Assembly (NCBI RefSeq): GCF_964204645.1
Contig: NC_134025.1
Span: forward strand, 14,012,001-14,076,000
From: Tubulanus polymorphus
Lineage: Eukaryota > Animalia > Nemertea
Length of the DNA stretch: 64,000 nt
Direction: 5' to 3'
Shown: positions 1,123 through 52,528 of the stretch, one piece after another
Layout: each line of letters opens with the position of its first letter
Position numbering within the stretch: position 1 is the first letter of the stretch
Translations under genes and position numbers: made by a program
Notes under the pieces: generated by a model
The model's database searches: none
What the model was told of the DNA's origin: nothing
What the model saw: only the letters and a program-made list of their open reading frames with translations

Positions 1123-2238
1123 ATGATGAAAAAAGAACAATATTTAAGAGATTTATATTATAACCCAGAAAGTGAAGTTTCATATTCAAGTGTTTCGGAA
1201 TTATGGGATAAAATTAAATCTGATAAAGAAAATGGTGCCGTATGGCACCCACATGGTGACATAAAATATAGTGAATTAAAATCATGGTTACAAAATCAAC
1301 CCACATATCAAATTCATAAAAAGATGGATAAAAAATATTTAACAAGAAAAGTAATGGTTTCATATATTGACCAACAATGGCAAGCTGATTTAATTGATAT
1401 GAAAAACTTAGAAGAATATAACAAAGGATATTTTTGGATACTAAATGTTATAGATATATTCAGTAGATACGCATGGAGTATCCCGATTAAAAATAAAACT
1501 GGTATAGAAGTTACAAATTCTTTCAAATTAATATTTAAAGAAGCTATCCCAGATAAAATACAATTTGATGAAGGTAAAGAATTTTATAACAAACATTTCA
1601 AAAAACTATTATCTGATAACGATGTAGAATATTTTTCAACACATTCAGATAAAAAAGCATCCGTTATAGAAAGATTTAATAAAACATTGAAAACTAGAAT
1701 GTGGAAATATTTCACCGCTAATGAAACATATAAATATATCGATGTGTTAGATGATTTAGTTAAAGGTTATAATAATTCTAAACATAATTCTATAAATATG
1801 AAACCTATACAAGCTAGAAAAGAAGAAAATTCAGAAATAGTTTGGAATAATTTATATGGTGCGTTTGTTACACATGATTTTGGAGAACCTAAATTTAAAA
1901 TAGGACAACATGTTAGAATTTCTAAATATCGAAAAACATTTTATAAAGGTTATACCCCTAATTTTACTGAAGAAATATTTAAAATTAAAAAGATAATATT
2001 AACTAAACCTTTTGTTTATAAATTAGAAGATCTAAAAGATGAAGAAATATTAGGTTATTTCTATGAACAAGAATTATCACTTGTACCAAATCCAGATGAA
2101 ATAGAATACAAAATAGAAAAAGTATTGAAAACAAAAACTCTTAAAGGAAAAAAGTATTCTCTGGTGAAATATAAAGGATATGATGATAAATTTAATGAAT
2201 GGATTTTATCTAGTAAAATTAAAAGAATAAATGAATAA
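1123..2238 (+). CDS. Retroviral-like DDE integrase with C-terminal chromodomain
   Basis: WQADLID, QFDEGKEF, VIERFNKTLK catalytic motifs; C-terminal YKIEKVL...SLVKYKGYDDKFNEWI chromodomain pattern. Confidence 0.95.
   Translation: MMKKEQYLRDLYYNPESEVSYSSVSELWDKIKSDKENGAVWHPHGDIKYSELKSWLQNQPTYQIHKKMDKKYLTRKVMVSYIDQQWQADLIDMKNLEEYNKGYFWILNVIDIFSRYAWSIPIKNKTGIEVTNSFKLIFKEAIPDKIQFDEGKEFYNKHFKKLLSDNDVEYFSTHSDKKASVIERFNKTLKTRMWKYFTANETYKYIDVLDDLVKGYNNSKHNSINMKPIQARKEENSEIVWNNLYGAFVTHDFGEPKFKIGQHVRISKYRKTFYKGYTPNFTEEIFKIKKIILTKPFVYKLEDLKDEEILGYFYEQELSLVPNPDEIEYKIEKVLKTKTLKGKKYSLVKYKGYDDKFNEWILSSKIKRINE
1234..1260 (+). repeat. GC-rich micro-palindrome insertion, copy 2 (in frame in integrase)
   Basis: GGTGCC-GTAT-GGCACC-CACATGGTGAC; the E2 integrase has only GGTAAT here. 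Confidence 0.75.
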
Positions 2239-2845
2239 AGATTTATTTATATTTGAACCACATAATATGTTAGTTACTGGAGTTACAAATTGTGGTAAAA
2301 CACACTTCATATTATATTTATTAGAAACTATTTATCAGAATCATTTTGATAATATAATATTATTCTGCCCAACTTATGAAATGAATGAAACGTATAATAG
2401 AGATATAGTTTTTAAAGATAAAAAGTTTATTATATTAAATTCTAAAACAGTGAAAGATAATTTAGATAATTGTATAAAAATTGCAATAGATATCTATAAA
2501 GGATCTAATACATTATTTATTATTGATGATTGCGCAAATTTACATGATTCTAAAATTAGAGAAAGTGAGTTATGTTATTTAGCTTTCTCTGGTAGACATT
2601 TTGGGATAACAACATGGGTTTTAAATCAGAAATATAATTCAATTGTGAAAGATTTTAGAGAGAATATAAGATTTCTAGTTTTATTCTACAACAAAGATAG
2701 AAAATCTATGCAACAATCATTGGAAGAAAATCAAATTATACCTCCTGAATTACATGATGAATATATGAATAAATTAAAGAATAATAAAGGTTCAAAATTA
2801 TTAATGAGATTACAATTTCCCTATGAATATAAATTTATAAAATAA
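2231..2845 (+). CDS. A32/FtsK-HerA-type DNA packaging ATPase
   Basis: Walker A GVTNCGKT, Walker B FIIDD, SGRH arginine motif, LNQ. Confidence 0.92.
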   Translation: MNKDLFIFEPHNMLVTGVTNCGKTHFILYLLETIYQNHFDNIILFCPTYEMNETYNRDIVFKDKKFIILNSKTVKDNLDNCIKIAIDIYKGSNTLFIIDDCANLHDSKIRESELCYLAFSGRHFGITTWVLNQKYNSIVKDFRENIRFLVLFYNKDRKSMQQSLEENQIIPPELHDEYMNKLKNNKGSKLLMRLQFPYEYKFIK

Positions 2846-2861
2846 AATCCTAATTCAAAAT

Positions 2862-3221
2862 ATTATAGAATTCACTGTATACTAATGGATGAGTGGATGA
2901 ATTGGATGAGTGGATGAATGGATGAGTGTAATAATATATAATTTACATATGTTTTTTATTTTTAAAACAGTAAGAGTTTGATTTGAAGTTATTTTATCAA
3001 TTTTATACTATATTTAAATATTATTTTAATAATATATATATATTGTGTTAAATTTAATAAAGAATAAAAATATTATATTTATACTCATACTATTCTTCCA
3101 ATTTATGTGTTAAAAAGTAAAATATATATATTATTATACTCATCCACTCTTCCACTCATCCAATTCTTCCAACTCATCCAACTCATCCATTCATCCATCA
3201 ATATACAGTGAATTCTATAAT
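2862..3221. repeat. 360-bp inverted-repeat cassette with GGATGAGT/GGATGAAT iterons
   Basis: ATTATAGAATTCACTGTAT at 2862 mirrored by ATACAGTGAATTCTATAAT ending 3221; tandem 8-9-mers in opposite orientation in the two arms. Confidence 0.88.
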
Positions 3222-3225
3222 CTTT

Positions 3226-4287
3226 TTAATTTTCATTTTCATATTTTTCTTTAAGCTTATTGTATTCTAAATATATATCCCTTTGCATTTTCTTTGGTAT
3301 AATTCCTAAATAATTCTCGAGTTTATATTTCCTGAATGTTTCTCTTGAAAATATTTTTGGAATATAATTTTCGATTTCAGTTTTAGATGGATGTTTATTT
3401 AAAAATTCTCTAAAATCATCATATTTAAGTTCAAATAAGTTCATTGTATAAGTTACATTTGGTTTAAAGTTATCTAACTTTTTCAATATGGTAACTATAT
3501 CATTACTCAAGAAATAATCTATAAATGTTTTTCTATACCACCGATAATCTGATATATTCTTATTATTAAATTTTGGATTTATAACTGTTGGATTTTCTAT
3601 TACATTATCTGTACCAATATGTTTAATTGAGTATTTATGATTCAATTGTTTATCATATATTACATATTCTTTACATTTTTCACACCAAGATTTAAATACT
3701 TGTATTGCATGGGCTGAATCATTTCCACCTTTTGTTTTTAATTTATAATGTTTTGCCCAATTAGCCTTTGTTATACATTCATTACAGAAGGCACAATAAT
3801 TCTGATCCTCTTTGCATTTATCTTTATATATATTGGCATATGTTTTTACTAATTGTAAAATATGTTCATCTTTTTTGATGTGTAATAAATAATCATTATA
3901 ATTATCAAAATCTTCTTCACAATACATACATCTAATGTTATCTTTTGGTTGAACATTTGATTTTTCTATTTTAGGTTCAATATTATATTCTATTTTTGTT
4001 TCAATCTTATCATCATTCGATGTAGAAGGTATAACATTATCTTCTATTTTATATTCAATATCATTCTTATCTTCTATTTTATATTCAATATCATTCTTAT
4101 CTTCTATTTTAGGTTCAATATTATCTTCTATTTTAGGTTCAATATTCTTATCTATTTTACTTATTCTATATTTGAATTGATTAAAGTAATCTCCAAAATA
4201 CTTACTGTATTCATCATAAGGTAATATATAATATATATCTGATATCATTTCACTTGGAGATTGTATTTCATATATTCCACCTTCCAT
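3226..4287 (-). CDS. Multi C2H2-type zinc-finger protein with IEYKIEDKND repeats (353 aa)
   Basis: CMYC..H..H, CAFC..H, CEKC..H..H motifs. Confidence 0.75.
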   Translation of the reverse strand: MEGGIYEIQSPSEMISDIYYILPYDEYSKYFGDYFNQFKYRISKIDKNIEPKIEDNIEPKIEDKNDIEYKIEDKNDIEYKIEDNVIPSTSNDDKIETKIEYNIEPKIEKSNVQPKDNIRCMYCEEDFDNYNDYLLHIKKDEHILQLVKTYANIYKDKCKEDQNYCAFCNECITKANWAKHYKLKTKGGNDSAHAIQVFKSWCEKCKEYVIYDKQLNHKYSIKHIGTDNVIENPTVINPKFNNKNISDYRWYRKTFIDYFLSNDIVTILKKLDNFKPNVTYTMNLFELKYDDFREFLNKHPSKTEIENYIPKIFSRETFRKYKLENYLGIIPKKMQRDIYLEYNKLKEKYENEN

Positions 4288-4319: not shown

Positions 4320-5567
4320 TTAATACATAACACTATCTAATTGTGAATTTACAATATTTAATTGCGCGTCAGATATAATATAAATATGCATTTTAAAATT
4401 TTTGATTCCCTTTTTCTTTGTCATAAATAATTGTATTCCATCTTTTGTATTTTGTAATTTTTTCCCAGAACCATGTAATGAATTATCTTCAGTTGTTCTA
4501 AAATCTAACCATAATGCATATTTATTACCGGTATAATAATCAATTTGATTAATATTACAATTTTCAAATGATTTTACTTTTTCATTCATAAAATGTTTTT
4601 TAATTTCTACCCATTGATCAATCATTCTCATTCCTTGACAAAATATTTTATTCGCTATTCCTTCGATAGTTATTTCTACTTTTGTTATTTCAGGATTATA
4701 ATAATTGTCAACATTTATTGCGCCATTAGTATACGTTCCAATGGTAAAAAATATTAATATACCTTTAATAGATCTTCTAGGAAAGTTAATATTCTCATTA
4801 ATTATTTCATCATTTGCATTAATAGTTACAGTTTTAAATTTATCAATATAATCATATAATAATGAAAACCCTTGATTATATTTAGTTTGAATTATACTTG
4901 AAATATTTTCATCAGTTACTGTATCATATTCTAAACATATATTCGATAATTTATAACTCATATCTTTATTAACGCTAGATAATACAATTTCATTTACAGG
5001 AGCAAATGTTATCTCAAATATAATATCTTCTTGAATTGCGTATTTATATAAAGGTGCATTATTATTTATCAATTCAAAATCTAATGGAATTTTATATTTG
5101 CTTCCATATATACTTTTTATCAATTTATCTACATCATTTGTTAATATTGCGCTATTAGCTTCTGATCTTAATTTATTTTGGTTTTCTGATTGAATTCCTT
5201 GAAATATCATATTATTTCTATTTTCTTTAGTTAACCATAAATCTTTATAATGCATAAATAAATTATAATCATCTAATGAGAAAACTGTTTCTGGACCAAT
5301 CTTTATTGTTAACTTTTTAATCAAATATCTTCCAACATTATCAACAACATAATTATTATTATTACCGATTACTTTTATATCAGCTGATAAATAAATACTG
5401 TTTGGAACATAAAAAGTATTTTGTGTTAATCTCGGAATTCTAACGTATAAAGTTTCATCGGGATTAATATTTGAAGGGTTATGAGTAATTATATGATGTG
5501 ATCTTTCTGCTTTAATAGCGTTAGATATTCTAGAAATCTTCGAAGGATTTATATAACTCCCACTCAT
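4320..5567 (-). CDS. Putative major capsid protein (double jelly-roll)
   Basis: 415 aa, beta-rich, highly conserved in all copies; N-terminal NP..R...IKAER.H.IITHNPS pattern resembles Polinton MCPs; genomic context. Confidence 0.75.
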   Translation of the reverse strand: MSGSYINPSKISRISNAIKAERSHHIITHNPSNINPDETLYVRIPRLTQNTFYVPNSIYLSADIKVIGNNNNYVVDNVGRYLIKKLTIKIGPETVFSLDDYNLFMHYKDLWLTKENRNNMIFQGIQSENQNKLRSEANSAILTNDVDKLIKSIYGSKYKIPLDFELINNNAPLYKYAIQEDIIFEITFAPVNEIVLSSVNKDMSYKLSNICLEYDTVTDENISSIIQTKYNQGFSLLYDYIDKFKTVTINANDEIINENINFPRRSIKGILIFFTIGTYTNGAINVDNYYNPEITKVEITIEGIANKIFCQGMRMIDQWVEIKKHFMNEKVKSFENCNINQIDYYTGNKYALWLDFRTTEDNSLHGSGKKLQNTKDGIQLFMTKKKGIKNFKMHIYIISDAQLNIVNSQLDSVMY

Positions 5568-10805: not shown

Positions 10806-13800
10806 TTAACACGTTAGAATCCTTTTCATAATCTCATTTTCTTTTGTTTCTTCTCTTTTGAATTTTATATATTCATCTAAATTGCAACCATAGGCGACTG
10901 TGTGGATTCCATCATCTAAAATATATCTTTTATCATCAAATGGGTTTAGACTTATCTTCTCTATCTCTTCAATATACATTTCATGATCTTCAGATCTTAA
11001 ACATTTCATCTTATGTTTTCTAACTTCTTCATTAAATATACAATTGATGTAATCTTTGAAATGAATATTCTTTTCAACAACGCTTTTGGTAATTCCTTTT
11101 AACATTTTAGCTTCATGTTCTTTAGTTTTATATGAATACATTTTAGATCTAATACCAATGAACTCTATCATTTCTTCACCACCTAATTCATCCTTAAACT
11201 TCCCAGGAACTTTTTTATTATCATTGGTAAACAATTCATGATTTTTTGGATAGTTACTGAAATCAAAATGGTGTTTTAATGTTTTTAAATCATCTGTTAT
11301 GTTATCAGTTTTTATCTTTAATATGTAAGAATCTGTATCAAAATATAAGATTTCTATGTGTTTTTCTCCAAAATGAGGTTGTAATATATTATAATAGAAT
11401 TCATACATTAGTAATTTTGATAATTCTAAAACTGCAGCTCCAACATAAATTGGTTTATTAAATTTCATAGAAGTTCTTTTTAATTTAACTGCTGCTAAAT
11501 TTTCATCGAATATTCTATTACCTATAAATTTCGGATACGATTGTAAATGTCTAATTCTTTTACCATTACTAACTAACTCAATATCATTTCTATTTCTTAT
11601 GTTTTCACATGTTTTTCCATAGAATGCATTATTCATTAACTTAAAAAAATCTTTTTCAAAATCAGTTTTAGATTTAGTTCTCTGTGTAGTATTAAAATCT
11701 ATATATTTTTCTAACCATTTAGATTGACTGAATGAAATATATCTATGTACTTTTTTTAATATCATTCCTTGTCTCAAATAAAACTTCAACATTCTATAAT
11801 GCACAACGTAATTATATTTATCTTCTTGAGTTACCATTAACTTTTCAGTATGAATATGATTATCAGGTTTAATTCTTTTTTGATAATTTGATAATTCTTC
11901 ATGTTTAACAGTTTTATGTTCAGGACAGTAAGCTAGATTTCTAGATTTAAATTTAATATGTTCAGGATATTCTAAATCTACAACAAAAAAGTAACCAGTA
12001 TCTGAATCATCTGCAATATCTAGAATTCTTTTCTTCCAATCAAATTTATCAATTTGTAAAACTTCAGTTATTTCAAACATCCCATAAGGTTGTGGTTCCA
12101 TCATTGCCCAACCATAAAGATTATTTGCATCTATGTTTAATAATTTATATCCAGGATTATCATTTACATTGAAATATCTATCACCCAATACACCTGAAAC
12201 ACCTCCTCTTATAGATTTTTCAAATAATAATAATTGATCTATATTTGTTAACAAATCCATTTTTATATCTGTAAATTTTAATCCACAATCCCATGTTAAT
12301 CCCGGTGATGAATAACAATGACAAGGATCAATATTGAAATATTTTAGGTTTACATCTCTAAACCTTTCGAATATATCGGTTAATAATAATACATCTGATT
12401 TTAAATATAAATCTACTAATTGTCCATGATTTTCTATTTTGAAATGATTCCAAATATTCAATGTTCTATTATAAACTTCATCTTTAACATATTCATTTTT
12501 TAATTCATCATAAAATTGTTCTTTTAATAATTCAGTTATTTTAAAATCATTATGCGATTTATAAAATGAATATGGAATTGCGCCTTTATATCTCATTAAT
12601 TGAAAATCATCATTATTTGGGTAATATTCTTTTAATATCTTTAATTCATCATCAACTAATGATTTTGATAAGTTATCTAATGAACTACTTAAAAATCTAT
12701 ATGAATCTATAAATCTTAAGCATCCAAATTGGAAAGATATATAATTCTCAGATGTTTTAGCTAACATTCTAAATTTATAAGTTGGTATTTTATCTTTTGA
12801 TCTATTTGAATTTAATATTTCTATTTCATTATTGATTTCTTCTATTTTATGACATAACTGTTTGATGAATAAATGCGCATCATATCCTGATAGGTTATGA
12901 AATATAACTGGTACAAAGTTAATTTTCTTAGCTTGTAAGTTACAATTCTCATGTGCAGCGCCTCTAAACTTTCCATTCAAATGATCATGGTCTCTTACTT
13001 TTTTATCTTTATAATTAAATATCTTTTCACAATAATAACATTTATCTGCAAACGCAAATACTTCTTTATCTTCTTCTGTCATAATTATTTCTTTATTTGT
13101 ATTCAATAATTTACTAAATCTTATTTCATATTCAATTAATAAGTCACAAAAATGATTGATAACATTTTCATTTCTATAATCATAATATTCACTTTCAATT
13201 AGTTCTGGATAATCAGATTTAATATATAACCCGAAAGCTGCAGCTGATTGATGAATCTTTTTAATAGTATTTGTTATTGGTGGTTCATCTGAATAATCAC
13301 TTTCATTAGAATTTAATTTCTTTCTTTTATAATATATATCTTTTCTATCTTTATCTGTTAATTCTTTATTTAATGATTCAAAATCTCCATATATTACAAA
13401 TGGTACTTTATTTTTGTAATCATATAATTTGAATTCTAATATTTTATCCTTTTCATTTGGTAAAACTAATTTACAATAATCATGATTATCACATAGTTGT
13501 TTATGATTTAATAATGTACTTTCATTACTAAATTTATGTAAACATTTTCTACATAGATATATTTTATTATGGTGATCACTTTCTGTTCTAAAAAATAAAT
13601 CTATTTGTTTAATCCACATATAATGATTCTCATAATATAGTATATCTATAACATCATTTGAATCATAATCTTTTGATAGGTATAAAGGTTCTAATGTATA
13701 ATGTTTAATATTATTTCCTTTTGTATTTGGTAATTTGATTAAATCAAATACATTTATCTTTATATTATTATCTCTTTCTATTTTTGGAATATTTTTAATT

Positions 13801-16800
13801 CTAACAGGATACTTATCTATCTTATAATTATTTTCAAATTGTTTATAATGAGTTAATCTAAAACTATGTTGTTTATAATCTTCAACTGGGTGTAAGCAAC
13901 TTATAATTGTCCATAGAAAACATTTATCATCTTCATTTTGTACATTTATTACAGCATTAGTTTTAAATGGTAGTTTAATATAACTTGATGCTTCAATATC
14001 TGGTTCTTTATAATATGATAAATTATTTTCATCAATTGGTTTTGATTTAGTTAACTTATAAAACTTCAGTTATTTCAAACATCCCATAAGGTTGTGGTTC
14101 CATCATTGCCCAACCATAAAGATTATTTGCATCTATGTTTAATAATTTATATCCAGGATTATCATTTACATTGAAATATCTATCACCCAATACACCTGAA
14201 ACACCTCCTCTTATAGATTTTTCAAATAATAATAATTGATCTATATTTGTTAACAAATCCATTTTTATATCTGTAAATTTTAATCCACAATCCCATGTTA
14301 ATCCCGGTGATGAATAACAATGACAAGGATCAATATTGAAATATTTTAGGTTTACATCTCTAAACCTTTCGAATATATCGGTTAATAATAATACATCTGA
14401 TTTTAAATATAAATCTACTAATTGTCCATGATTTTCTATTTTGAAATGATTCCAAATATTCAATGTTCTATTATAAACTTCATCTTTAACATATTCATTT
14501 TTTAATTCATCATAAAATTGTTCTTTTAATAATTCAGTTATTTTAAAATCATTATGCGATTTATAAAATGAATATGGAATTGCGCCTTTATATCTCATTA
14601 ATTGAAAATCATCATTATTTGGGTAATATTCTTTTAATATCTTTAATTCATCATCAACTAATGATTTTGATAAGTTATCTAATGAACTACTTAAAAATCT
14701 ATATGAATCTATAAATCTTAAGCATCCAAATTGGAAAGATATATAATTCTCAGATGTTTTAGCTAACATTCTAAATTTATAAGTTGGTATTTTATCTTTT
14801 GATCTATTTGAATTTAATATTTCTATTTCATTATTGATTTCTTCTATTTTATGACATAACTGTTTGATGAATAAATGCGCATCATATCCTGATAGGTTAT
14901 GAAATATAACTGGTACAAAGTTAATTTTCTTAGCTTGTAAGTTACAATTCTCATGTGCAGCGCCTCTAAACTTTCCATTCAAATGATCATGGTCTCTTAC
15001 TTTTTTATCTTTATAATTAAATATCTTTTCACAATAATAACATTTATCTGCAAACGCAAATACTTCTTTATCTTCTTCTGTCATAATTATTTCTTTATTT
15101 GTATTCAATAATTTACTAAATCTTATTTCATATTCAATTAATAAGTCACAAAAATGATTGATAACATTTTCATTTCTATAATCATAATATTCACTTTCAA
15201 TTAGTTCTGGATAATCAGATTTAATATATAACCCGAAAGCTGCAGCTGATTGATGAATCTTTTTAATAGTATTTGTTATTGGTGGTTCATCTGAATAATC
15301 ACTTTCATTAGAATTTAATTTCTTTCTTTTATAATATATATCTTTTCTATCTTTATCTGTTAATTCTTTATTTAATGATTCAAAATCTCCATATATTACA
15401 AATGGTACTTTATTTTTGTAATCATATAATTTGAATTCTAATATTTTATCCTTTTCATTTGGTAAAACTAATTTACAATAATCATGATTATCACATAGTT
15501 GTTTATGATTTAATAATGTACTTTCATTACTAAATTTATGTAAACATTTTCTACATAGATATATTTTATTATGGTGATCACTTTCTGTTCTAAAAAATAA
15601 ATCTATTTGTTTAATCCACATATAATGATTCTCATAATATAGTATATCTATAACATCATTTGAATCATAATCTTTTGATAGGTATAAAGGTTCTAATGTA
15701 TAATGTTTAATATTATTTCCTTTTGTATTTGGTAATTTGATTAAATCAAATACATTTATCTTTATATTATTATCTCTTTCTATTTTTGGAATATTTTTAA
15801 TTCTAACAGGATACTTATCTATCTTATAATTATTTTCAAATTGTTTATAATGAGTTAATCTAAAACTATGTTGTTTATAATCTTCAACTGGGTGTAAGCA
15901 ACTTATAATTGTCCATAGAAAACATTTATCATCTTCATTTTGTACATTTATTACAGCATTAGTTTTAAATGGTAGTTTAATATAACTTGATGCTTCAATA
16001 TCTGGTTCTTTATAATATGATAAATTATTTTCATCAATTGGTTTTGATTTAGTTAACTTATAAAACTTCAGTTATTTCAAACATCCCATAAGGTTGTGGT
16101 TCCATCATTGCCCAACCATAAAGATTATTTGCATCTATGTTTAATAATTTATATCCAGGATTATCATTTACATTGAAATATCTATCACCCAATACACCTG
16201 AAACACCTCCTCTTATAGATTTTTCAAATAATAATAATTGATCTATATTTGTTAACAAATCCATTTTTATATCTGTAAATTTTAATCCACAATCCCATGT
16301 TAATCCCGGTGATGAATAACAATGACAAGGATCAATATTGAAATATTTTAGGTTTTCATCTCTAAACCTTTCGAATATATCGGTTAATAATAATACATCT
16401 GATTTTAAATATAAATCTACTAATTGTCCATGATTTTCTATTTTGAAATGATTCCAAATATTCAATGTTCTATTATAAACTTCATCTTTAACATATTCAT
16501 TTTTTAATTCATCATAAAATTGTTCTTTTAATAATTCAGTTATTTTAAAATCATTATGCGATTTATAAAATGAATATGGAATTGCGCCTTTATATCTCAT
16601 TAATTGAAAATCATCATTATTTGGGTAATATTCTTTTAATATCTTTAATTCATCATCAACTAATGATTTTGATAAGTTATCTAATGAACTACTTAAAAAT
16701 CTATATGAATCTATAAATCTTAAGCATCCAAATTGGAAAGATATATAATTCTCAGATGTTTTAGCTAACATTCTAAATTTATAAGTTGGTATTTTATCTT

Positions 16801-19800
16801 TTGATCTATTTGAATTTAATATTTCTATTTCATTATTGATTTCTTCTATTTTATGACATAACTGTTTGATGAATAAATGCGCATCATATCCTGATAGGTT
16901 ATGAAATATAACTGGTACAAAGTTAATTTTCTTAGCTTGTAAGTTACAATTCTCATGTGCAGCGCCTCTAAACTTTCCATTCAAATGATCATGGTCTCTT
17001 ACTTTTTTATCTTTATAATTAAATATCTTTTCACAATAATAACATTTATCTGCAAACGCAAATACTTCTTTATCTTCTTCTGTCATAATTATTTCTTTAT
17101 TTGTATTCAATAATTTACTAAATCTTATTTCATATTCAATTAATAAGTCACAAAAATGATTGATAACATTTTCATTTCTATAATCATAATATTCACTTTC
17201 AATTAGTTCTGGATAATCAGATTTAATATATAACCCGAAAGCTGCAGCTGATTGATGAATCTTTTTAATAGTATTTGTTATTGGTGGTTCATCTGAATAA
17301 TCACTTTCATTAGAATTTAATTTCTTTCTTTTATAATATATATCTTTTCTATCTTTATCTGTTAATTCTTTATTTAATGATTCAAAATCTCCATATATTA
17401 CAAATGGTACTTTATTTTTGTAATCATATAATTTGAATTCTAATATTTTATCCTTTTCATTTGGTAAAACTAATTTACAATAATCATGATTATCACATAG
17501 TTGTTTATGATTTAATAATGTACTTTCATTACTAAATTTATGTAAACATTTTCTACATAGATATATTTTATTATGGTGATCACTTTCTGTTCTAAAAAAT
17601 AAATCTATTTGTTTAATCCACATATAATGATTCTCATAATATAGTATATCTATAACATCATTTGAATCATAATCTTTTGATAGGTATAAAGGTTCTAATG
17701 TATAATGTTTAATATTATTTCCTTTTGTATTTGGTAATTTGATTAAATCAAATACATTTATCTTTATATTATTATCTCTTTCTATTTTTGGAATATTTTT
17801 AATTCTAACAGGATACTTATCTATCTTATAATTATTTTCAAATTGTTTATAATGAGTTAATCTAAAACTATGTTGTTTATAATCTTCAACTGGGTGTAAG
17901 CAACTTATAATTGTCCATAGAAAACATTTATCATCTTCATTTTGTACATTTATTACAGCATTAGTTTTAAATGGTAGTTTAATATAACTTGATGCTTCAA
18001 TATCTGGTTCTTTATAATATGATAAATTATTTTCATCAATTGGTTTTGATTTAGTTAACTTATAAAACTTCAGTTATTTCAAACATCCCATAAGGTTGTG
18101 GTTCCATCATTGCCCAACCATAAAGATTATTTGCATCTATGTTTAATAATTTATATCCAGGATTATCATTTACATTGAAATATCTATCACCCAATACACC
18201 TGAAACACCTCCTCTTATAGATTTTTCAAATAATAATAATTGATCTATATTTGTTAACAAATCCATTTTTATATCTGTAAATTTTAATCCACAATCCCAT
18301 GTTAATCCCGGTGATGAATAACAATGACAAGGATCAATATTGAAATATTTTAGGTTTTCATCTCTAAACCTTTCGAATATATCGGTTAATAATAATACAT
18401 CTGATTTTAAATATAAATCTACTAATTGTCCATGATTTTCTATTTTGAAATGATTCCAAATATTCAATGTTCTATTATAAACTTCATCTTTAACATATTC
18501 ATTTTTTAATTCATCATAAAATTGTTCTTTTAATAATTCAGTTATTTTAAAATCATTATGCGATTTATAAAATGAATATGGAATTGCGCCTTTATATCTC
18601 ATTAATTGAAAATCATCATTATTTGGGTAATATTCTTTTAATATCTTTAATTCATCATCAACTAATGATTTTGATAAGTTATCTAATGAACTACTTAAAA
18701 ATCTATATGAATCTATAAATCTTAAGCATCCAAATTGGAAAGATATATAATTCTCAGATGTTTTAGCTAACATTCTAAATTTATAAGTTGGTATTTTATC
18801 TTTTGATCTATTTGAATTTAATATTTCTATTTCATTATTGATTTCTTCTATTTTATGACATAACTGTTTGATGAATAAATGCGCATCATATCCTGATAGG
18901 TTATGAAATATAACTGGTACAAAGTTAATTTTCTTAGCTTGTAAGTTACAATTCTCATGTGCAGCGCCTCTAAACTTTCCATTCAAATGATCATGGTCTC
19001 TTACTTTTTTATCTTTATAATTAAATATCTTTTCACAATAATAACATTTATCTGCAAACGCAAATACTTCTTTATCTTCTTCTGTCATAATTATTTCTTT
19101 ATTTGTATTCAATAATTTACTAAATCTTATTTCATATTCAATTAATAAGTCACAAAAATGATTGATAACATTTTCATTTCTATAATCATAATATTCACTT
19201 TCAATTAGTTCTGGATAATCAGATTTAATATATAACCCGAAAGCTGCAGCTGATTGATGAATCTTTTTGATAGTATTTGTTATTGGTGGTTCATCTGAAT
19301 AATCACTTTCATTAGAATTTAATTTCTTTCTTTTATAATATATATCTTTTCTATCTTTATCTGTTAATTCTTTATTTAATGATTCAAAATCTCCATATAT
19401 TACAAATGGTACTTTATTTTTGTAATCATATTTTTTGAATTCTAATATTTTATCCTTTTCATTTGGTAAAACTAATTTACAATAATCATGATTATCACAT
19501 AGTTGTTTATGATTTAATAATGTACTTTCATTACTAAATTTATGTAAACATTTTCTACATAGATATATTTTATTATGGTGATCACTTTCTGTTCTAAAAA
19601 ATAAATCTATTTGTTTAATCCACATATAATGATTCTCATAATATAGTATATCTATAACATCATTTGAATCATAATCTTTTGATAGGTATAAAGGTTCTAA
19701 TGTATAATGTTTAATATTATTTCCTTTTGTATTTGGTAATTTGATTAAATCAAATACATTTATCTTTATATTATTATCTCTTTCTATTTTTGGAATATTT

Positions 19801-20846
19801 TTAATTCTAACAGGATACTTATCTATCTTATAATTATTTTCAAATTGTTTATAATGAGTTAATCTAAAACTATGTTGTTTATAATCTTCAACTGGGTGTA
19901 AGCAACTTATAATTGTCCATAGAAAACATTTATCATCTTCATTTTGTACATTTATTACAGCATTAGTTTTAAATGGTAGTTTAATATAACTTGATGCTTC
20001 AATATCTGGTTCTTTATAATATGATAAATTATTTTCATCAATTGGTTTTGATTTAGTTAACTTATTATATTTTGTGTTATAAACATGTAAAGTTATAAAT
20101 ATTATCTCATCAAATATTAAACCAGATCCTTCAAAATATTTCTCTTCTATTTTAGTTTTTATTTCATTATAACATTTATTTAATTTATCATCTATATGTT
20201 GTTTAGATATAATATGTTGTGAATGAGAATTTATATTATATATTGGTTTATCTTCAGATTTTATAAACTTTACTTTAACTGATATACTAATTTTAGGATA
20301 TTCAACATCTGTAATTATTTTTATTATTTCTTTCATATTTTCTAAATGTTTTTTATTTTCTTCTATTGTTTTACTTTTATGAAATTTAAACTCGATAGCT
20401 GCTGGACCAATATCACTTTTAAATGCTTCGGTTATCTCTATATCTTTTTTATTATCTAATGAATTAATATAATTTCTTACATCTTCCATGTATGGTCTTT
20501 TATTGTTTAATTTATTTTTTATTCTTTTAATTGCGCTTTGTTTCTTATCGTTATCATTATCAAAATAATCTTCACCTATAATATCATTATTCTTATTTCT
20601 AATATGACTTATAGATTTTAAATGTTCTTTATAATATCTTTTATCACTGAATGATTGATTACATGTATCACATTCATATGTTTCTTTTTCATTCTTTAAT
20701 TCTTCTAATTTAGTTTCTAATATATCATCTTTATATTCTAGTTTCAATTTATTTTCTAAATGTGTTCTAGTTTTATTGTGTCTTGCTTTTTGGGATTTAT
20801 CTATATCGATATTACATGTTGGGCAGTAGTATTTATTTGCTTCCAT
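10806..20846 (-). pseudogene. polB: Protein-primed family B DNA polymerase (reconstructed 1344 aa) interrupted by tandem amplification
   Basis: Exo YGDFES/FHNLSGYD, motif A DANNLYG, B KLMNNAFYGK, C YFDTDS; N-terminal zinc fingers; EndoVII-like CYYC..RDHDH..G.FRG..H..CN insert; split into ORFs of 928, 521, 521 and 937 aa. Confidence 0.93.
12057..20065. repeat. Four tandem copies of a 2002-bp internal pPolB segment
   Basis: Junction GTTAACTTA-TAAAACTTC recurs at 14059, 16061 and 18063; each junction creates a TAA on the minus strand. Confidence 0.95.
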
Positions 20847-20926
20847 TTTAATACTATATTTTTTATTAAAATTGATTTTAGAAGTTCAATGATTTAAATG
20901 TTATTCATTTATGTGAATATTTTAAG

Positions 20927-21195
20927 AGTAATAGGGGTAATAGGCTTTCAAGCTGAAAGGTTGAACGGGCGGGTGAGTAAAAATGAAAAACATGAAAATA
21001 ATTACAATTTCTACTTGAATTAGGAGTGAAACTCATAAAAATGAAAAATAAATTCGAGCGTGTGAGAATTTATTTTTCATTTTTATGAGTTTCGCGAGTA
21101 ATTCAAGTAGAAATTGTTATTATTTTTATGTTTTTTCATTTTTTACGAGCTCGACCGTTCGACCTTTGGCTTGAAAGCCTATTACCCCTATTACT
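20927..21195 (+). repeat. Terminal imperfect palindrome (269 bp), right TIR tip of E1
   Basis: AGTAATAGGGGTAATAGGCTTTCAAG ... CTTGAAAGCCTATTACCCCTATTACT. Confidence 0.92.
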
Positions 21196-24784: not shown

Positions 24785-24802
24785 CTATTTATAATTTGGA
24801 AT

Positions 24803-25167
24803 ATTATAGAAACTAATTTATATATCTATATACTAGACGTACGATTAAGAAAGTAAGATTCTTACCAAGAAAGTAAGATTCTTAGATTCTTACGTACGTC
24901 TAGTATATAGATATATAAATTATTAAATGAATTATATAAAAATGAATAAATTATATGTTTTCTCTTAATAATAATAAAAATAGATTATATTATAACTATT
25001 TCTATATTAGATTAATAATTTTATGTTTTTAATTTTTATGCAAACTATTATATATATATATCTACGTACTAGACGTACGAGTAAGAAAGTAAGATTTCTT
25101 GGATTCTTGGATTCTTGGATTCTTACTCGTACGTCTAGTATATAGTTATATAAATTAGTTTTATAAT
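24803..25167. repeat. ~365-bp inverted-repeat cassette with two internal hairpins and GATTCTT iterons
   Basis: TACTAGACGTACG...CGTACGTCTAGTA occurs twice; outer arms ATTATAGAAACTAATTTATATA / TATATAAATTAGTTTTATAAT. Confidence 0.85.
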
Positions 25168-25169
25168 AA

Positions 25170-26228: not shown

Positions 26229-29200
26229 TTAATACATAACACTATTCAATCGGTTCCTGAACTTCGCTGAAAAAGCTGAATCACTGAAACGCTGAAACGC
26301 TGAAATAAAAACGCTGAAATTTCAGGGAATTTCCGAAAAACGCTGAAATTTCAGGGAATTCCCGAAAAACGCTGAAATCGTGCTAGGTACCAACAATACA
26401 CGTTTTGAAATATTTTCCGGGCCGGTGTCCGCTGCCGAGTCCTGAACCGTGTTTTAGTCTCTACCTTCGGTTACAGAGACATGCATGGACAGTATGTGTG
26501 GAGTATATTTCTAGAGGGCCACTTGTTGGACAAATTAATTCGCTTGAAATCCGGATTTTTAATGCATACAGGCAGCATAATTAGGAAAACCCATTCACAA
26601 ACCGTGCAAGCCAACTTAAACACTATGCTCAATATTCCCTGCAAGACGCAAAATATCTTATTTGAACGTTCATGTATAAAACATGCAGCAACTTTTCTTT
26701 TGTCAACACGTTGATGGGCGACGGACTATGTCACTATGGTATTCTGTGAAGGAGGTAAATTAAATTTGACAGCTAGTTATATAAATGATGCAGCTTTTGG
26801 ACAAAAGGGATCTAACTAAATTTCTTTTTAATTCACTGTGGAATGGAATGGAATGGATTGACGCCAATGGCATGCAGTAGGCCCCTACGTATGGGTCATA
26901 CTGATTAGCGTCAACCAATTAATCTAAATCGGGCTAACCATTCAACAACTGTGAATAATTTATTTGCTGTGGCGTGATAATATTTAGTTTTTTTGAAGAA
27001 ATGACATACCAACTGTTAGAAAAATGTACCGATTCTTATTTTTAGACTACTACTGAATCTATAAAAGGAGGAGTCATAGACAAAGTTGATTTGCTTAGCT
27101 GGTGACACTTCTTGTCAAGTACATCATCTCAAGTACTGGGTGTTTTGTAAGTTTAATTTCAGTATTTATTTACTAAGTGCTGTTCTCTCGGACCTCAGTG
27201 CTTTCAAACTAGGCCCACCCCATAGGCTATATAGTCCAGGGTGCATTAGCCACTATTCTTTTTTATCCGACTAAAATGCACCTTTTTCTATTTTTAGATT
27301 CAGGCTTAGAATGTGCAAATTTTTTGAGATACTGAGAAATCAGATGGCACCAGTAAACTTCAACTGCGAAATTTGCAGCAGGATAGCTGAACGACACAAT
27401 TTTTAAAAATAAAATGGCTATTCGAATGCTATTTCAATAATAACTTGATTCAACCTGAGAGAAATAAGTCAATTGCGGATGTACAGTACACCCACTTTTC
27501 TTCCCTGTTTCCTGGTACCAAATTTTTAGTCTTAAGCTAAGCGATATTCTAAGGTATACTAGTGGATTTCATTAGAATATGAAGCAATGGAACCAGAATT
27601 CTAGCCAGAGTTAAGCGAACTATTGATTCTGATATAATGTAAGAACTGATTTCCTTTGTATACTCTTGCAGAATGTGTTATGTTTTATTTCAAGCTGTTA
27701 AATAATATAGTTAGACAAATGTCCAATTATTGGATCTTTCTTGTTGACTCGTTTAATTTTGTGAGTTAAGAGTTCCAGTGAATCCACAATGTGCAGTGCC
27801 TAGCCTTCATCTACACTAAAGCCAAGCCTGTGTATGGGAAAAAAATATCGTTCGACTCCTATAGGCCAGACACATCAAAGCATGCAATACATTGCAGATA
27901 GTAGTCTCCGGCAAGTCGAAAGAGAAAGTGAACCACCTACCCGGGAACAAAGACACTTAAAGATTCCTTCCTCCTTGTAGAAATTGTAGAAATATGGCAC
28001 CCAATTGTAGCAATGCTAAGTACAGTATACTATGACGGTTGAACCTTTCTTAACGAATTTCAATGACACCGAAAATAGAATCAAAATAATCATTAGTTCC
28101 ATGCTAGCACTTAATTTGGGTTATCAGGTTCAGCCTAACTGTACTTTCATTCAGCTACTACTTGTATGAGACTTGGCAATGATAAGTTGCAAGAAATCAC
28201 CAAACATAAGAAAAAATATTGTGAATTAATATTACTGTGATTAAGAATTTATTCAAATGAAGTGATAACTTCATTGTTAGATCGTACCGGTATATGCACA
28301 TAAAACTATGGCAAAAAATACATCTAACAATCCACGCAATCCGCAATCGATCAAGTCGATCATGACGTCGACCTTAAGGCATGTCTCTGTAACCGAAGGT
28401 AGAGCATAAAACACGGTTCAGGACTCGTCAGCGGACACTGGCCCGGAAAAAATTTCAAAACGTGTATTGTCGGTACCTAGCACGATTTCAGCGTTTTTCG
28501 GGAATTCCCTGAAATTTCGGCGTTTTTCGGAAATTCCCTGAAATTTCAGCGTTTTTATTTCAGCGTTTCAGCTTTTCAGTGTTTCAGCTTTTTCAGCGAA
28601 GTTCAGGAACCGCTATTCAATTGAGAATTCACAATATTTAATTGCGCGTCAGATATAATATAAATGTGCATTTTAAAATTTTTGATTCCTTTATTCTTTG
28701 TCATGAATAATTGTATTCCATCTTTAGTGTTTTGTAATTTTTTCCAGAACCATGTAATGAATTATCCTCTGTTGTTCTAAAATCTAACCATAATGCATAT
28801 TTATTACCGGTATAATAATCAATTTGATTAATGTTACAATTTTCAGATGATTTCACTTTTTCATTCATAAAATGTTTTCTAATTTCTGGCCATTGATCAA
28901 TCATTCTCATTCCTTGACAAAATATTTTATTTGCTATTCCTTCGATAGTTATTTCTACTTTTGTTATTTCAGGATTATAATAATTATCAACATTTATTGC
29001 GCCATTAGTATATGTTGCAATGGTAAAAAATATTGATATGCCTTTAATAGATCTTCTTGGGAAGTTAATATTCTCATTAATTATTTCATCATTTGCATTA
29101 ATAGTTACAGTTTTAAATTTATCAATATAATCATATAATAATGAAAATCCTTGATTGTATTGAGTTTGAATTATACTTGAAATATTTTCATCAGTTACTG

Positions 29201-40512: not shown

Positions 40513-40770
40513 TTTAATACTAAATTTTTTATTAAAATTGATTTTAGAAGTTCAATGATTTATATCATGTATTATTTCAATCACACTTTACTAACACTTT
40601 TAATGTTTAAAAATCTAACTCATACAAATATGAATATTGAAATAATGTTGTAAATATATCTATATATCTATTCTATAAGAGCTTACACTTTTATATTGAA
40701 TAATCTGTCAATTTAAATGTTATTCATGTAAATTATGTTTATATATATATATATATATGAATATTTTAAG

Positions 40771-40958
40771 AGTAATAGGGGTAATAGGCTTTCAGGTTAA
40801 AGGTTGAAGGGGCGAGTGGTAAAAAATGAAAATAACAATAATTTACAGTTGAATTAGGAGTGTGCGCGACTAATTCAACTGTAAATTATTGTTATTTTCA
40901 TTTTTTTACGAGCTCGACCCTTCGACCTTTGATCTGAAAGCCTATTACCCCTATTACT
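40771..40958 (+). repeat. Terminal imperfect palindrome (188 bp), right TIR tip of E2
   Basis: AGTAATAGGGG...CCCCTATTACT; unrelated sequence follows immediately. Confidence 0.92.
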
Positions 40959-43899
40959 AGTGTTCCCTCGTGGGACGACCCACGCGCCGCGCCCGACGCA
41001 CCGCGAATAGGATGTTGCCGAGACCAACACACGGATTGCGGCATTAAATGTTTGTGGATTATTTAACAAAATGAAATCACCTGACTTAGGCGATTGTATA
41101 ACACAATTTGACTTTTTTGTTTATCGGAAACTAAACTCGATGCGTGCGACTCGGAATTAGTTAAAGAACAACTACCTAGCGGATACAGTGCTATTTTTAA
41201 GAACAGACATAATCTAGCCGTTAGAAAATCTGGCAGAATTGGGATAATATACCGAAGCGAATATAGTAAATATGTCAAAGAAATACAAACCGAAAAATAT
41301 AGCTGCAAAGCAGCGATAACGGGTTTTCTGAGTAGGCGTGCTATTCATAATTTGAAAAGTGGATAAAAGAAATATATCAATACGGGATACGCATTTCATG
41401 TGTCAAGTCACACCAATGCGGTTTAACATAACATAATTTATAGTTATAGTCAAATTGGGGGTTACTCGGGTCGTTTATTTGTCTGTGGAGTCGAGTAGAT
41501 TGGTTACCCGTCTGTAACATTGGTTAGGGAAACGACTCGTCAGCTTGATGAGTTGTATGTATTATGATTGTGCGCCACCTGCATTTTCCGAAATAATGTT
41601 CATATAATTATTTGAAGGGACGATTAAAATCAATTATCAACGTACATCTGAATATGTAATAGTCCTTAGTAACTTTCTGTTGCAGAGGGCATAGAAAAGA
41701 TTTTGAAATTATTTAATTAAAATATAAATTTTATTTACGAAAAAGAAACTATTATGGTCAGTACAAATTGAAAATTCATAGTGTATTTTTAAGAACAAGC
41801 TTACATAGCTTACAGAATACATCACGTACATTTGAATCTTATAAGTGATGGGTAAAAAATCAACGTGTGACAGAAAAAAATGTAGTTAATTATTTAACAA
41901 TATCGAAATATGTGCTCTCTTTTTAAACTAATGGAGTGATACGCAATTAATCACATGGCCTGTATTAAAAGATAGAACATACAAATTGGATATTTATAAG
42001 TCGAAACATGTGAACAGAAACTAAAACTTTGATGTCAGTGACCAGTAGTATGGAATTACACAACGACAATTGGCTTTAAACTCAACAAACATTATTAAAG
42101 AATGTTTCAAACAAAATGCTTTATAAAACGACATGAATAAACTTGTTTTACAAAACAAGAAAGTACATTTTGAACTTTTGAATGGTCGAATCCCATTTAT
42201 TCACAGTAACCTGTGATGTGGCGATCCTCGGAGCCATCATTCTTGATGACGTCACTAACAAGTGGTCACGGCCGTCGCGTGCACTCATTTCTTTGAAAAT
42301 CTAGCTTCCTCGCGGAGCGGGTCCTGGTGACGCTTCGCCCTGCCCCCTTCGCGCTGAGAAATATCTTATTCCCAGTCAGCAAAGACAGGTTCTAAAGATC
42401 ATAGAGTGCATCGCTGGAGGGTTTCCGATCCAATTTGAATTGGTGCGGTGGCGCTCTCAATGCGGAAGTTTTTGTGAATTTTTCAGTCGGCGACGGACGT
42501 TTATCGTTGTAAGTGATGTAATATGTAAAAAATGCAGGGAAACCTATCTCAATTTGTTTTTAGCGATGCAGCGGAACTAATAAGGAACATTTTGATATAT
42601 AACATGACTATAGTACACTATCCCTGATGGAATAATAAGCTCCACTCGACAAACTCGTTCCCGTGCATTTTTATCTGTTTCAGCCACAGGGGCTCGTATC
42701 AGAGTTGTTGGTAATGTAAAAACGAAAATCTGTTAATCCAATGTATATAGTATATATGAAATAACAAGGGGGCTAACGACGATCACAAACTACTCAACTT
42801 CAGTCGCTTACTTTTTCGTTATTTTGAGTTTGTCCGCGAGTTTGTATACTGTCAAATGAAGTTTCTTCGTCAATTTGTCGTATGTAAGTATCAATCTATA
42901 GGTTATATTGGCCCTATTAGGGGTTCGATACCGAAATTTGGTGAATTCCTCAGATTTATTTTAATTTATTCCAGGTTGTTATCAGAAAAATATGTACTTT
43001 ATTTCATAGGTTAGTCTTTGATTGAAAACTAAAAATGGATGATAGTTCTAAATTTGATGTTGATTCACATGACCAATCTAGTAAGTATGGCTCACTCGTC
43101 TTTTAGAATAAGAGACCTATTGCATTAATGCTTCAATTCAAGTTGCTATACAACCTTTTATACAGATATTTACCTTATCAATATAAACATGTATTTGCCA
43201 TTAGCCATACAATTCAGTAAAACTTTTCCCGTCCAGATTTTGAAACATCATTTGACTCAATTTTTCCTCCTAGAAAATTGCTTTAGCTCATTCCAATGTT
43301 CGCAGTAAAAGTGAATGTAGCATGTATGATTCCCATCCATCAATTTTGTCTTGTTTCGTATTTTTAGCGAAAATCTCGAAAAAGTCTGACGTCGAGGCAG
43401 GTGGTGGCTAGACAAAGACATATTCTTGGGAAATATTTAAAGACGCATGGCATGACTTATTGTTCACTTTTTCACTTTTTCCTATCCTTATTTAGAAATT
43501 GAAGTATTGTAATAAACTATTGATTTATTTTTGTTGATCAACGCAACTAGTTTTGTTGTTTTCTTTCTTAATTTACATTTGAATTGGATGGTCATCTTGC
43601 GTAGGAGTCAGTTTGTCATCGAAGCAATACAGTCTAACTTGTTGACGTCTCAGATGCAGCGGGGCAGGGCGGTCATTATATTGTGGACTTATCCAAATAA
43701 CACTTACACAGCCCAACGTGTTTCAGTGTGTAAACTCCGTCGTACTCGGCATTATAAGACCGTGAGGAATTGAGTTTTAGTCACCTGAGCCCTCGGCTTG
43801 ATTCGACCAAAAAGATCTTAACTGACTTCACAGAATTTGATTATGAGTCAAGGATTTTCTAAATTTCTGAATGGGTAGTTGAAAAAAAAATAAAAACAA

Positions 43900-45387
43900 C
43901 AATATTTCAACTAGCTTGTTAATCTAGTATATTTTTAGTTACATTCTAGTTAAATTCTAGTTGCAACAACACAATTTTTGTTTGTTATATAAATGGGAGG
44001 TGGAAAGAAAATAAAATCTAAAAATAGTGATGTTCCAATTGAACAAACTTTGGATGATTTAGGTATAACAGAAACAAAATTAGCGTCAGATAATAATGGT
44101 GCTTTAAATGATATTGTAAAAGTTTTATTAGTAAAAATTTAACTTATAATGAATTAGATACAATGAAATCAGATGAAATTATTAAATTATTTAAGATTTA
44201 TGAAACTGCGAGAATAGCTAGAATTAATGATGCTATATCAGAAAATGTAGTAAAAGGTTATAGTAAATTATGTAATTATATGCTGCCAACTCAAGATGAA
44301 AATAGATTATATTCCGATTCAAAAAATGATTATTTAGTTATGACTGAATTAAATAAATGGATTGGATATTTATCATTTCAATTAGGTGGATTTATGACGC
44401 TATTATCAACTGGAGTTATAACATTTTCAAATATTGAAAGTAAAAATTTTTCTACAATAAATGAACGAAGTGGAAGAGGTGAAAGAATTAACTGTGAAGA
44501 AAAAACCGAGAACTCAGAAACAAATTGAATGATCTCGGCAATTAGGAATTAGATCAAGAGAATTTAAAAAAGCTATAAAAGAAAAAATAAATAATAATGA
44601 TGTTAATAAAAATGGTGAAAATATTGTTATTTCTACTCCTTCTGGTAATAGATTGATAGATATTTATATTTTACAACTGGATTTGTAATTGTATTCATTT
44701 TGATTGGGTGTAGTTGGTATAAGAAATCAAATAAAATCCATGGTATTAATAATTCTGAAACTACTGCTATTGAAAATGAAAATACTTCTGAAATTCCAAA
44801 ATTCACAATAATAAAAATGGATTAATATTTTAGAAAAAAGCAAAAAAATATTTTTATTTTAATTAATTGAATATCTCACTACTTTTATCTATCTACGCGA
44901 AGCAATTGAATTGTCCAGATAAGTCATTTCGGATTCTTGATATAAATTTTTTTATTTTTTTATTATTTTATTTCTTAATTATTTAGTCAACAACTTCTAA
45001 ATCATGATGCCCGTCTTCATTTTTCCCATGGTAAATTATTTTAAATCCCTCTAAACCTTCTAATTCCTCTGTACTCAATGCAACCCATTTATCAGGTTAA
45101 AATACATTAAATTCTCGCGTTGTACTAACATTACAGTAACTTAATTTTGCTGTTACTTTCTCTCCATATTTAGTTTTTATCTTCAATATTTATTTTATTT
45201 CAATATTTTGTGTTCAATTTCTTTTGTAACATCGACAAACTTTTTTATTTCAAATTGTTTTTTTGTTGGTTTTATTCTGTTATTTATTGTTGCTAAGAAT
45301 GCTTTTCTATCTCCCATTTATTATGGGCAAACATTACTTGTGGTGATGTGTGGTGTGTCGTCCTCACGTCCTCTGGTCTGAAACCCT
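43900..45387. mobile_element. Degenerate inverted fragment of an E3-type Polinton left arm
   Basis: Reverse-complement homology to ~53110..54730: ACTAG repeats, 200-aa-family gene (43993..44528, with deletion), TM gene, conserved motif, SSB-like gene (44983..45317, -). Confidence 0.88.
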
Positions 45388-51816: not shown

Positions 51817-52009
51817 AGTAATAGGGGTAATGGGCTTTCAGGCCAAAGGTCGAACGGTCGAGAAATTTTCCAAATATGAAAATAACAATAATTTCTACTT
51901 GAATTAGTCGCGTACACTCCTAATTCAAGTAGAAATTATTATTATTTCACATTTGGAAAATTTCTCAACCGTTCAACCTTTAACCTGAAAGCCCATTACC
52001 CCTATTACT
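51817..52009 (-). repeat. Terminal imperfect palindrome (193 bp), left TIR tip of E3
   Basis: AGTAATAGGGGTAATGGGC...GCCCATTACCCCTATTACT. Confidence 0.92.
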
Positions 52010-52092
52010 CTTAAAATATTCATATACATGAATAAAATATATATGAATAACATATAAATTGATAGATTATTCAATATAAAAGAGTTAGTAAA

Positions 52093-52528
52093 AAAGTAAC
52101 GAGTAATTAACGAGCTCTTATAGAATAGATATATAGATATATTTTAAACATATTACAATACTTATATTTGTATGAGTTAGATTTTTAAACATTAAAAGTG
52201 TTAGTAAAGTGTGGATTGAAATAATTCATATTTAAATCATTGAATATTTATATTTACATGCGTTAAATTCTTATTTTCAGTATAAAAGTAACGAGTAATT
52301 AACGAGTGAAATAATTCATATTTAAAACAGTGAATATTTATATTTATATGTGTTAAATTCTTGATTTTTAATATAAAAAGTAACGAGTAATTAACGAGTG
52401 AAATAATTCATATTTAAAACAGTGAATATTTATATTTATATGTGTTAAATTCTTGATTTTTAATATAAAAAGTAACGAGTAATTAACGAGTGAAATAATT
52501 CATATTTAGAACATTGAATATTTATATT
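52093..52528. repeat. Subterminal iterons AAGTAACGAGTAATTAACGAG (4x) and 92-bp tandem unit
   Basis: Motif near 52094, 52286, 52378 and 52470. Confidence 0.85.

Follow-up and report, generated by a model that had tools for sequence, protein, structure and literature searches.

Strand-biased non-canonical pairs in terminal hairpins of Tubulanus polymorphus Polintons point to a probable folded single-stranded 3′ end

Introduction

Polintons, or Mavericks (adintoviruses), share a pPolB polymerase with a terminal protein (TP) and a vOTU domain, an rve integrase and an A32 ATPase (PMC8502044, bioRxiv 10.1101/2024.03.18.585575), together with terminal inverted repeats (TIRs) starting AGT and a target-site duplication (TSD) of 5-6 bp. 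Here we analyse the ends of such elements in a 64-kb stretch of the Tubulanus polymorphus genome (contig NC_134025.1, positions 14,012,001 to 14,076,000; hereafter the window), which contains three large, partly decayed Polinton copies and one fragment. Element 1 encodes a pPolB with predicted TP and vOTU domains, an rve integrase and an A32 ATPase, and the copies have TIRs of some hundred bases that start AGT; a 6-bp TSD was seen in a relative. A Pfam scan of 17 window proteins gave no match to the adenovirus-type (adenain) cysteine protease of Polintons; element 1 extends leftward beyond the window. The usual model joins Polinton ends in an end-to-end panhandle, and the available portions of the two sources cited above do not mention terminal hairpins.

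The closest described ends are those of Halocafeteria seosinensis virophages and of Polinton-like virus (PLV) subtype 4, for which the accessible text of a preprint (bioRxiv 10.64898/2026.07.28.741278) reports terminal palindromes beside TSDs and proposes hairpin priming, chiefly in elements that lack pPolB. Both sets are rve-integrating Polinton-like elements with palindromes in the TIRs beside the TSD, but the protist palindromes are about 52 nt long (in one example) and mostly occur without pPolB, whereas those described here are 110-270 nt long and lie next to a pPolB that bears a TP. The accessible text makes no mention of strand bias, non-canonical pairs or isomers. An initial annotation of the window, made from the letters alone, had proposed the hairpins as a candidate for an undescribed mechanism, a word that is too strong given the palindromes and the priming model of this preprint.

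Parvovirus termini (in minute virus of mice, MVM, the left end; in adeno-associated virus, AAV, the inverted terminal repeat) have a paired 3′-OH at the genome tip and mismatch bubbles, as do the ends described here, which are unbranched rods. AAV ends occur as flip and flop. Parvoviruses need an NS1/Rep nickase, and no HUH/NS1/Rep nickase was found by Pfam among the 17 window proteins scanned. Flip and flop ends of hairpin genomes are covered in the accessible parts of PMC8956199 and PMC1185569, the latter also describing an autonomous parvovirus left end with a single isomer, as here. Poxvirus telomeres are similar in form, being imperfect terminal hairpins with functionally needed mismatches, but differ in being covalently closed, occurring as flip and flop and taking part in concatemer resolution (PMC8956199, in part).

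In Streptomyces, the 3′ overhangs fold and contain loops with sheared G-A pairs; they act as templates for TP priming, and fold-back extension repairs them (PMC5449611, in part). These telomeres (Tpg/Tap) resemble what we propose below in their folded 3′ strand, sheared G-A pairs, protein priming, fold-back tip repair and lack of inversion; they differ in having several short palindromes, an internal origin, a Tap primase, no B-family polymerase and no integration. The element studied here encodes a pPolB and has a G-A sequence pattern of presumed sheared geometry; we treat these telomeres as a functional analogy only.

Results

Terminal hairpins close on the last base and carry mismatches of one type

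Three Polinton ends are visible in the window, each an imperfect palindrome.

20927..21195, + (3′-terminal strand): E1 terminal hairpin, right end of element 1, 27-bp perfect outer stem
21029..21090, +: extra apical stem-loop of E1, a 62-nt insert relative to E2 and E3
20877..20926, no strand: inner TIR part of element 1, shorter than at E2
40771..40958, +: E2 terminal hairpin, at the right end of element 2, with a perfect outer stem of 25 bp
40551..40770, no strand: inner non-palindromic TIR part of E2, whole TIR about 410-430 bp
51817..52009, − (3′-terminal strand): E3 terminal hairpin, left end of element 3, 26-bp perfect outer stem
52010..52244, no strand: inner TIR part of E3

E1 and E2 are right ends directly upstream of the pPolB start, and E3 is a left end. 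The hairpins measure 188-269 nt with the final base included, and the coordinates given for them in the initial annotation were exact on recheck. The TIRs of E2 and E3, which belong to different copies, are 79% identical over 444 columns in inverted orientation. The 15-mer at the tip occurs six times in the window, once per end of each hairpin (mean 0.18 in shuffles), and of nine groups of perfect stems of at least 19 bp, seven fall in these hairpins and two in one internal palindrome.

Mismatches were counted from a strand-neutral hairpin alignment that gives no credit to wobble. Read on the 3′-terminal strand, they are G-T 5, G-A 5, G-G 2 and T-T 1 in E1, G-T 4, G-A 3 and G-G 1 in E2, and G-T 7 and G-A 2 in E3. 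Pooled, 29 of the 30 mismatches contain a G and the last is T-T, with no A-C, C-T or C-C, which bears out the earlier description of G-T and G-A mismatches on this strand; because E1-E3 share ancestry, these are not 30 independent events and are weak statistics taken alone. The 3′-terminal strand also folds better by 9-11 kcal/mol in all three hairpins, with energies of −107.2 (+) versus −96.2 (−) kcal/mol in E1 (z −24.8 and −23.6), −81.6 versus −72.7 in E2 and −87.0 versus −77.7 in E3.

Tandem GA steps (5′-GA facing 5′-GA) lie 3 bp beneath a 2-nt loop in E2 and 3 bp beneath the loop in E3, and E1 has two in its stem and one more, by eye, in its 10-nt apex. Both tandem contexts quoted at the outset (tGAg/cGAg and gGAg/cGAc) were found, as were both quoted covarying arm blocks (including TTCTACT/AGTAGAA versus TTACAGT/ACTGTAA) and the extra apical module of E1, which is the 62-nt insert at about 21029-21090. 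Template switching probably made this insert, and reads contain joints that skip it.

The tips are element ends

No element has both of its ends in the window, so that no TSD is readable there. Raw 150-nt genomic reads came from one run, of which about 12% was covered. Among 12,754 reads placed on the E1 region, 1,791 diverge directly after 21195 (agreement 0.34), and at E2 1,910 of 5,703 diverge after 40958 (agreement 0.36). This splitting into mixed flanks at the tip indicates that the family has many insertion sites and that the hairpin closes on the final base. Inner flanks are homologous among E1-E3 and outer flanks are not. Furthermore, in a 15.1-kb relative (L195, at G001:C9 291-15427), whose polymerase match is only 24%, both hairpins are flush with a 6-bp TSD; another (L166) lies within a microsatellite and its TSD is ambiguous. 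The initial annotation would have been undone by hairpins that miss TSD-defined ends, and in L195 the two coincide.

The strand bias recurs in other lineages

We surveyed 157 loci with a related pPolB; in 100 of them the sequence covers the start of the polymerase together with 150 or more upstream bases. A hairpin is apparently terminal in six of these 100 (L113, L147, L121, L116, L132 and L048), a count that is not a prevalence as many loci stop short of the element end. From L113 we reached a complete 19.4-kb element with a hairpin at each end, and two more ends were found along with the 15.1-kb element; a further 28 pPolB loci added no terminal hairpins. Across the set the hairpins measure 110-270 nt, and the five other lineages with the same bias have a pPolB of 24-41% identity. 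Exact searches for the tip pattern in viral contigs gave 0 matches, and single-protein and capsid scans of these contigs gave no loci.

In six lineage representatives, G-type mismatches outnumber C-type by 50 to 7 (binomial p = 4e-9), made up of G-T 17 versus A-C 5, G-A 25 versus C-T 2 and G-G 8 versus C-C 0, p-values that overstate the case because sites are treated as independent and lineages are partly related. With the window left out, the five other lineages still give 38 to 7, and the absence of bias across copies, which would have counted against the initial annotation, was not what we saw. We found 13 tandem 5′-GA/5′-GA steps in 10 of 14 ends, and no AG, TC or CT tandems. In eight ends the tandem GA sits 2-3 bp beneath a loop of 2-3 nt, a placement that recurs although the arm sequences are unrelated. 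Perfect outer stems of 19-28 bp are present in 10 of 14 ends, and in several lineages a single-base bulge lies some 20-28 bp inward of the tip.

As controls we took 25 non-terminal hairpins, 21 of them with at least 5 informative mismatches. Their median best-strand share is 0.62, compared to 0.71-1.0 for five terminal hairpins (p = 0.003). We also ran neutral simulations, 4,000 each for symmetric decay and for 3′-strand deamination. Symmetric decay left zero C-type among 10 mismatches in 0.25% of runs, and five-fold 3′-strand deamination left none in 27%; tandem GA arose in 0.025% of runs under either. Damage bias could explain G-T but not G-A.

Four hairpins and three further ones were set aside. 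L030, L049, L096 and L071 are not demonstrably terminal; L017 (subterminal), L086 and L127 were also excluded. On the + strand, the G-type to C-type counts would agree with the bias in L030 (21:33) if it is a left end and in L049 (6:0) if it is a right end, and would disagree in L096 (7:5) and L071 (1:4).

Several observations on these loci stand apart. An AG that is conserved directly inward of the hairpin in the window, L121, L116 and L132 was considered as a 2-nt overshoot trimmed by the integrase and rejected as not general, being missing from L166, L195, L198 and L147. At L195 169-464, a hairpin-ended Polinton is inserted 2 bases plus the TSD away from the tip of another, and the window likewise holds clustered copies; an insertion preference near element ends is possible. 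In L147 (8376-11756), bacterial-looking genes lie 67 bases away from a hairpin end with its pPolB start, and the contig is most likely chimeric. L017 has a 59-nt hairpin (134-192) about 130 bases inside a tip without a terminal hairpin. Host repeats of L200 (16571-16725, 6373-6508, 5899-6005 and 15053-15177) carry 1-3 tandem GA steps on one strand, three of them with GNA triloops, in a 20-kb stretch where no Polinton marker genes were found; they look strand-selected and possibly belong to another element family with a single-stranded stage.

Arms covary and the assembled ends are of one isomer

Variant frequencies in the reads agree between the two arms at stem positions 11 (0.30/0.30), 16 (0.55/0.54), 69 (0.12/0.11) and 78 (0.30/0.27), and match more loosely at positions 75 and 76; this comparison is unphased, covers the listed variants (12 more lie beyond them) and may include reads sitting on the wrong arm. 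Among the listed changes, 10 would pair as A-C, C-T or C-C with the partner base of the reference, and each of these has a listed partner change, restoring Watson-Crick pairs in nine cases and T-G in one. Of the positions with unmatched changes, three give G-T and five give G-G, G-A, T-T or A-A. Between E1, E2 and E3, arm changes come as whole blocks altered on both arms, and arm-to-arm copying probably produces the covariation. Copying alone is nonetheless insufficient, since the fixed G-T and GA/GA positions would be lost through it and not preserved, so that the alternative of gene conversion alone, raised in the initial annotation, would probably account for the symmetry and not for these positions.

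All 14 assembled ends are of one isomer, including both ends of the complete elements L166 and L195, and the flip and flop pairs that mark AAV- or poxvirus-type resolution are thus not seen at assembled ends; symmetric resolution is accordingly not supported. In the raw run, none of the six listed loose-end positions lies before 20927 (the smallest has 320 reads), versus 2,149 reads at the outer tip. If these positions are ranked by count, inverted ends would stay under about 13%, a rough bound that is weakened by an excess of read depth on the outer arm, described below.

The polymerase keeps predicted protein-priming domains

18060..20846, −: pPolB 5′ part, 928-aa frame, begins 80 bp inside E1
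20079..20441, −: predicted TP-like domain, beta-sheet and two long helices
19629..19928, −: vOTU-like segment, Cys to His, both residues invariant in 57/57 aligned sequences
10806..13619, −: pPolB 3′ part, Pfam DNA_pol_B_2 (PF03175), E 2.7e-14

The 5′ part contains C2H2 fingers, the TP-like and vOTU-like domains and an Endonuclease VII-like insert scoring about at the Pfam cut-off. In a model of its N-terminal region (mean pLDDT 85), a beta-sheet with two helices is followed by a disordered linker and then by a Cys/His domain, which fits the TP-linker-vOTU layout given in the accessible text of bioRxiv 10.1101/2024.03.18.585575. The best PDB matches of the TP-like part are Y-family polymerases, one of them an isolated little-finger domain (E 0.004 or weaker), the best viral fold matches of pPolB are adintovirus and MELD polymerases, and a sequence search of solved structures returned zinc fingers plus one chance match only. 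Named pPolB homologues include insect, spider, coral and mollusc entries. A tie between the Endonuclease VII insert and hairpins is unsupported, as hairpin-ended L195 is unmatched there and loci without hairpins match across it. The gene is split by a 2002-bp unit in four tandem copies (12044-20065, 99.6-99.9% identity), which may be a recent tandem duplication or an assembly artefact.

Other features of the window

1123..2238, +: rve integrase with chromodomain, element 1 (Pfam scan)
2231..2845, +: A32-type packaging ATPase, element 1 (Pfam scan)
4320..5567, −: probable major capsid protein, labelled from size and position

The capsid candidate (415 aa) has 925 homologues and no Pfam match. 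Element 2 is interrupted at 26251-28612 by a 2.4-kb insertion with 234-bp inverted ends (96%), in element 3 (53097-56746) the blocks of ORF1/ORF2 and of integrase/ATPase are inverted compared with their arrangement in elements 1 and 2, and an additional partial Polinton copy lies at 43875-45402. Degenerate palindromes of differing sequence are found between the convergent ATPase and the next ORF at 2844-3239 and 24802-25168, the latter containing a hairpin at 24814-24922; their G-type to C-type counts are 9:21 and 10:7.

Discussion

These comparisons make it likely that the 3′-terminal strand folds as single-stranded DNA under selection that acts on one strand, and selection of this kind suggests that the molecule under selection is single-stranded. 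In the standard Polinton model such an intermediate is itself a hypothesis, and we know of no experimental demonstration of Polinton replication. We hypothesize that the folded 3′ end serves as an origin for protein priming and for end repair, a reading drawn from sequence to which we give a probability of roughly 45%. Under this hypothesis, strand-displacement synthesis would free a single strand whose 3′ end would fold locally, without waiting for a panhandle of 15-20 kb to form, with tandem sheared G-A pairs and very short loops as its cap. The fold would offer a duplex of 19-28 bp with the same sequence as the genome tip, to which pPolB-TP, or a partner that reads the mismatches, would bind and prime opposite the tip. 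A trimmed 3′ end would be extended back to the tip on the inner arm as template, and such refilling would keep the outer stem perfect, copy blocks between the arms and leave the hairpin uninverted. Our literature search gave nothing relevant on tandem sheared G-A pairs in DNA, whose chemistry is taken here as background.

Another possibility, which we regard as doubtful, is that the paired 3′-OH is extended inward into a hairpin-closed duplex that is resolved asymmetrically so that one isomer survives, as at the MVM left end. The geometry equals that of a parvovirus 3′ hairpin, a single left-end isomer arising by asymmetric resolution is known in autonomous parvoviruses (PMC1185569, in part), and the accessible text of bioRxiv 10.64898/2026.07.28.741278 draws the same model for Halocafeteria virophages and a PLV. 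Symmetric nicking of a hairpin-closed duplex would leave half of the ends inverted, and with 14 of 14 ends in one orientation this form of resolution is unsupported. No Rep/HUH nickase turned up among the scanned window proteins. The borderline Endonuclease VII-like insert of the window pPolB speaks for this possibility, but it does not follow the hairpins among loci. The retained TP-like and vOTU-like domains favour protein priming over self-priming. The inference in the initial annotation accordingly holds for selection on a strand-specific 3′ fold, and its parvovirus-like self-priming is not borne out by the single isomer and the preserved protein-priming domains. If one-strand damage or a single ancestor produced the bias and arm-to-arm copying the palindromes, no selection would be needed at all. 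Block-wise covariation and the E1 insert do resemble copying, strong 3′-strand deamination often leaves no C-type mismatch, and accidental annealing is named as an alternative in the accessible text of the same preprint; yet pooled G-A exceeds G-T (25 versus 17), tandem GA recurs beneath the loop in unrelated arms and in neither simulation, and non-terminal hairpins are far less biased, so that this reading is disfavoured and, in our view, highly improbable.

The fold could also be read by a protein during excision, integration, protection or packaging, in the manner of vaccinia I1, a role that we consider quite unlikely. Mismatch positions are fixed and a one-base bulge is present in several lineages, vaccinia hairpin mismatches are needed for assembly and not for DNA synthesis (PMC8956199, in part), and the standard Polinton model, as far as its accessible description goes, includes single-strand excision. 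Cruciform extrusion from double-stranded DNA would, however, involve both strands, and a single strand offers one 3′-OH. An rve integrase joins two 3′-OH ends. Very unlikely, finally, is that the selected structure is RNA, with outward transcripts through the TIR folding by means of G-U and tandem G-A pairs. G-U and sheared G-A pairs are frequent in RNA, and the same strand folds better with RNA parameters (E1 −167 versus −141). A DNA end is favoured because the stem ends exactly at the final base of the element and the loops resemble DNA mini-hairpins. By eye, no GNRA or C(UUCG)G tetraloop is present at the 14 apices. Three apices are GAA triloops, and a pyrimidine-GA-purine context surrounds 9 of the 13 tandem steps, both being DNA-stabilising motifs. 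Rfam gives 11 generic hairpin matches only, all below the gathering score.

Several points weigh against priming and repair from a folded 3′ end. The evidence consists of 150-nt genomic reads and contigs, sequence comparison and predicted structures. The outer arm (21100-21195 and 40896-40958) has about three times the read depth of the inner arm, and some inverted or corrected ends could hide in this excess. A recessed paired 3′-OH is a primer-template junction, and we found no feature that would halt extension at the tip. The tips of L009, L017, L110 and L183 have no hairpin despite a related pPolB, nor, less certainly, do those of L101, L066 and L190, so that the survey proposed in the initial annotation shows terminal hairpins recurring in other lineages and several tips doing without them. 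The lineages are partly related, with L147 resembling the L166 family and L195 sharing capsid-module genes and host contigs with L166. L048, at 15 versus 6 with its tip at a contig start, is the weakest case. Tandem GA or TC steps also occur in five of the 25 control hairpins, four of which are host repeats on one contig, and the tandem GA motif is therefore not private to Polinton ends.

Strand-biased non-canonical pairing at Polinton ends was not described in the literature that we searched, including the accessible parts of PMC11296320, PMC6431247, PMC8502044 and PMC12220804; this scope leaves aside subscription papers, Kapitonov and Jurka 2006 and Repbase. Terminal palindromes with hairpin priming having already been proposed, the strand-specific pairing signature is the new part.

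Taken together, selection on the fold of one strand is evidence, at the level of sequence, for a 3′ end that functions in single-stranded form, as DNA or RNA. The fixed isomer limits the range of mechanisms, and the hairpin is a short natural substrate for deciding whether pPolB primes from the terminal protein or from the hairpin. These results extend terminal hairpins from protist elements without pPolB to Polintons that encode it. A widespread subset of TP-bearing Polintons combining a single-stranded stage, a self-priming 3′ hairpin and asymmetric resolution without a Rep nickase is, we think, unlikely, but would, if true, be a hybrid between protein priming and rolling-hairpin replication and would connect Polintons with bidnaviruses and parvoviruses.
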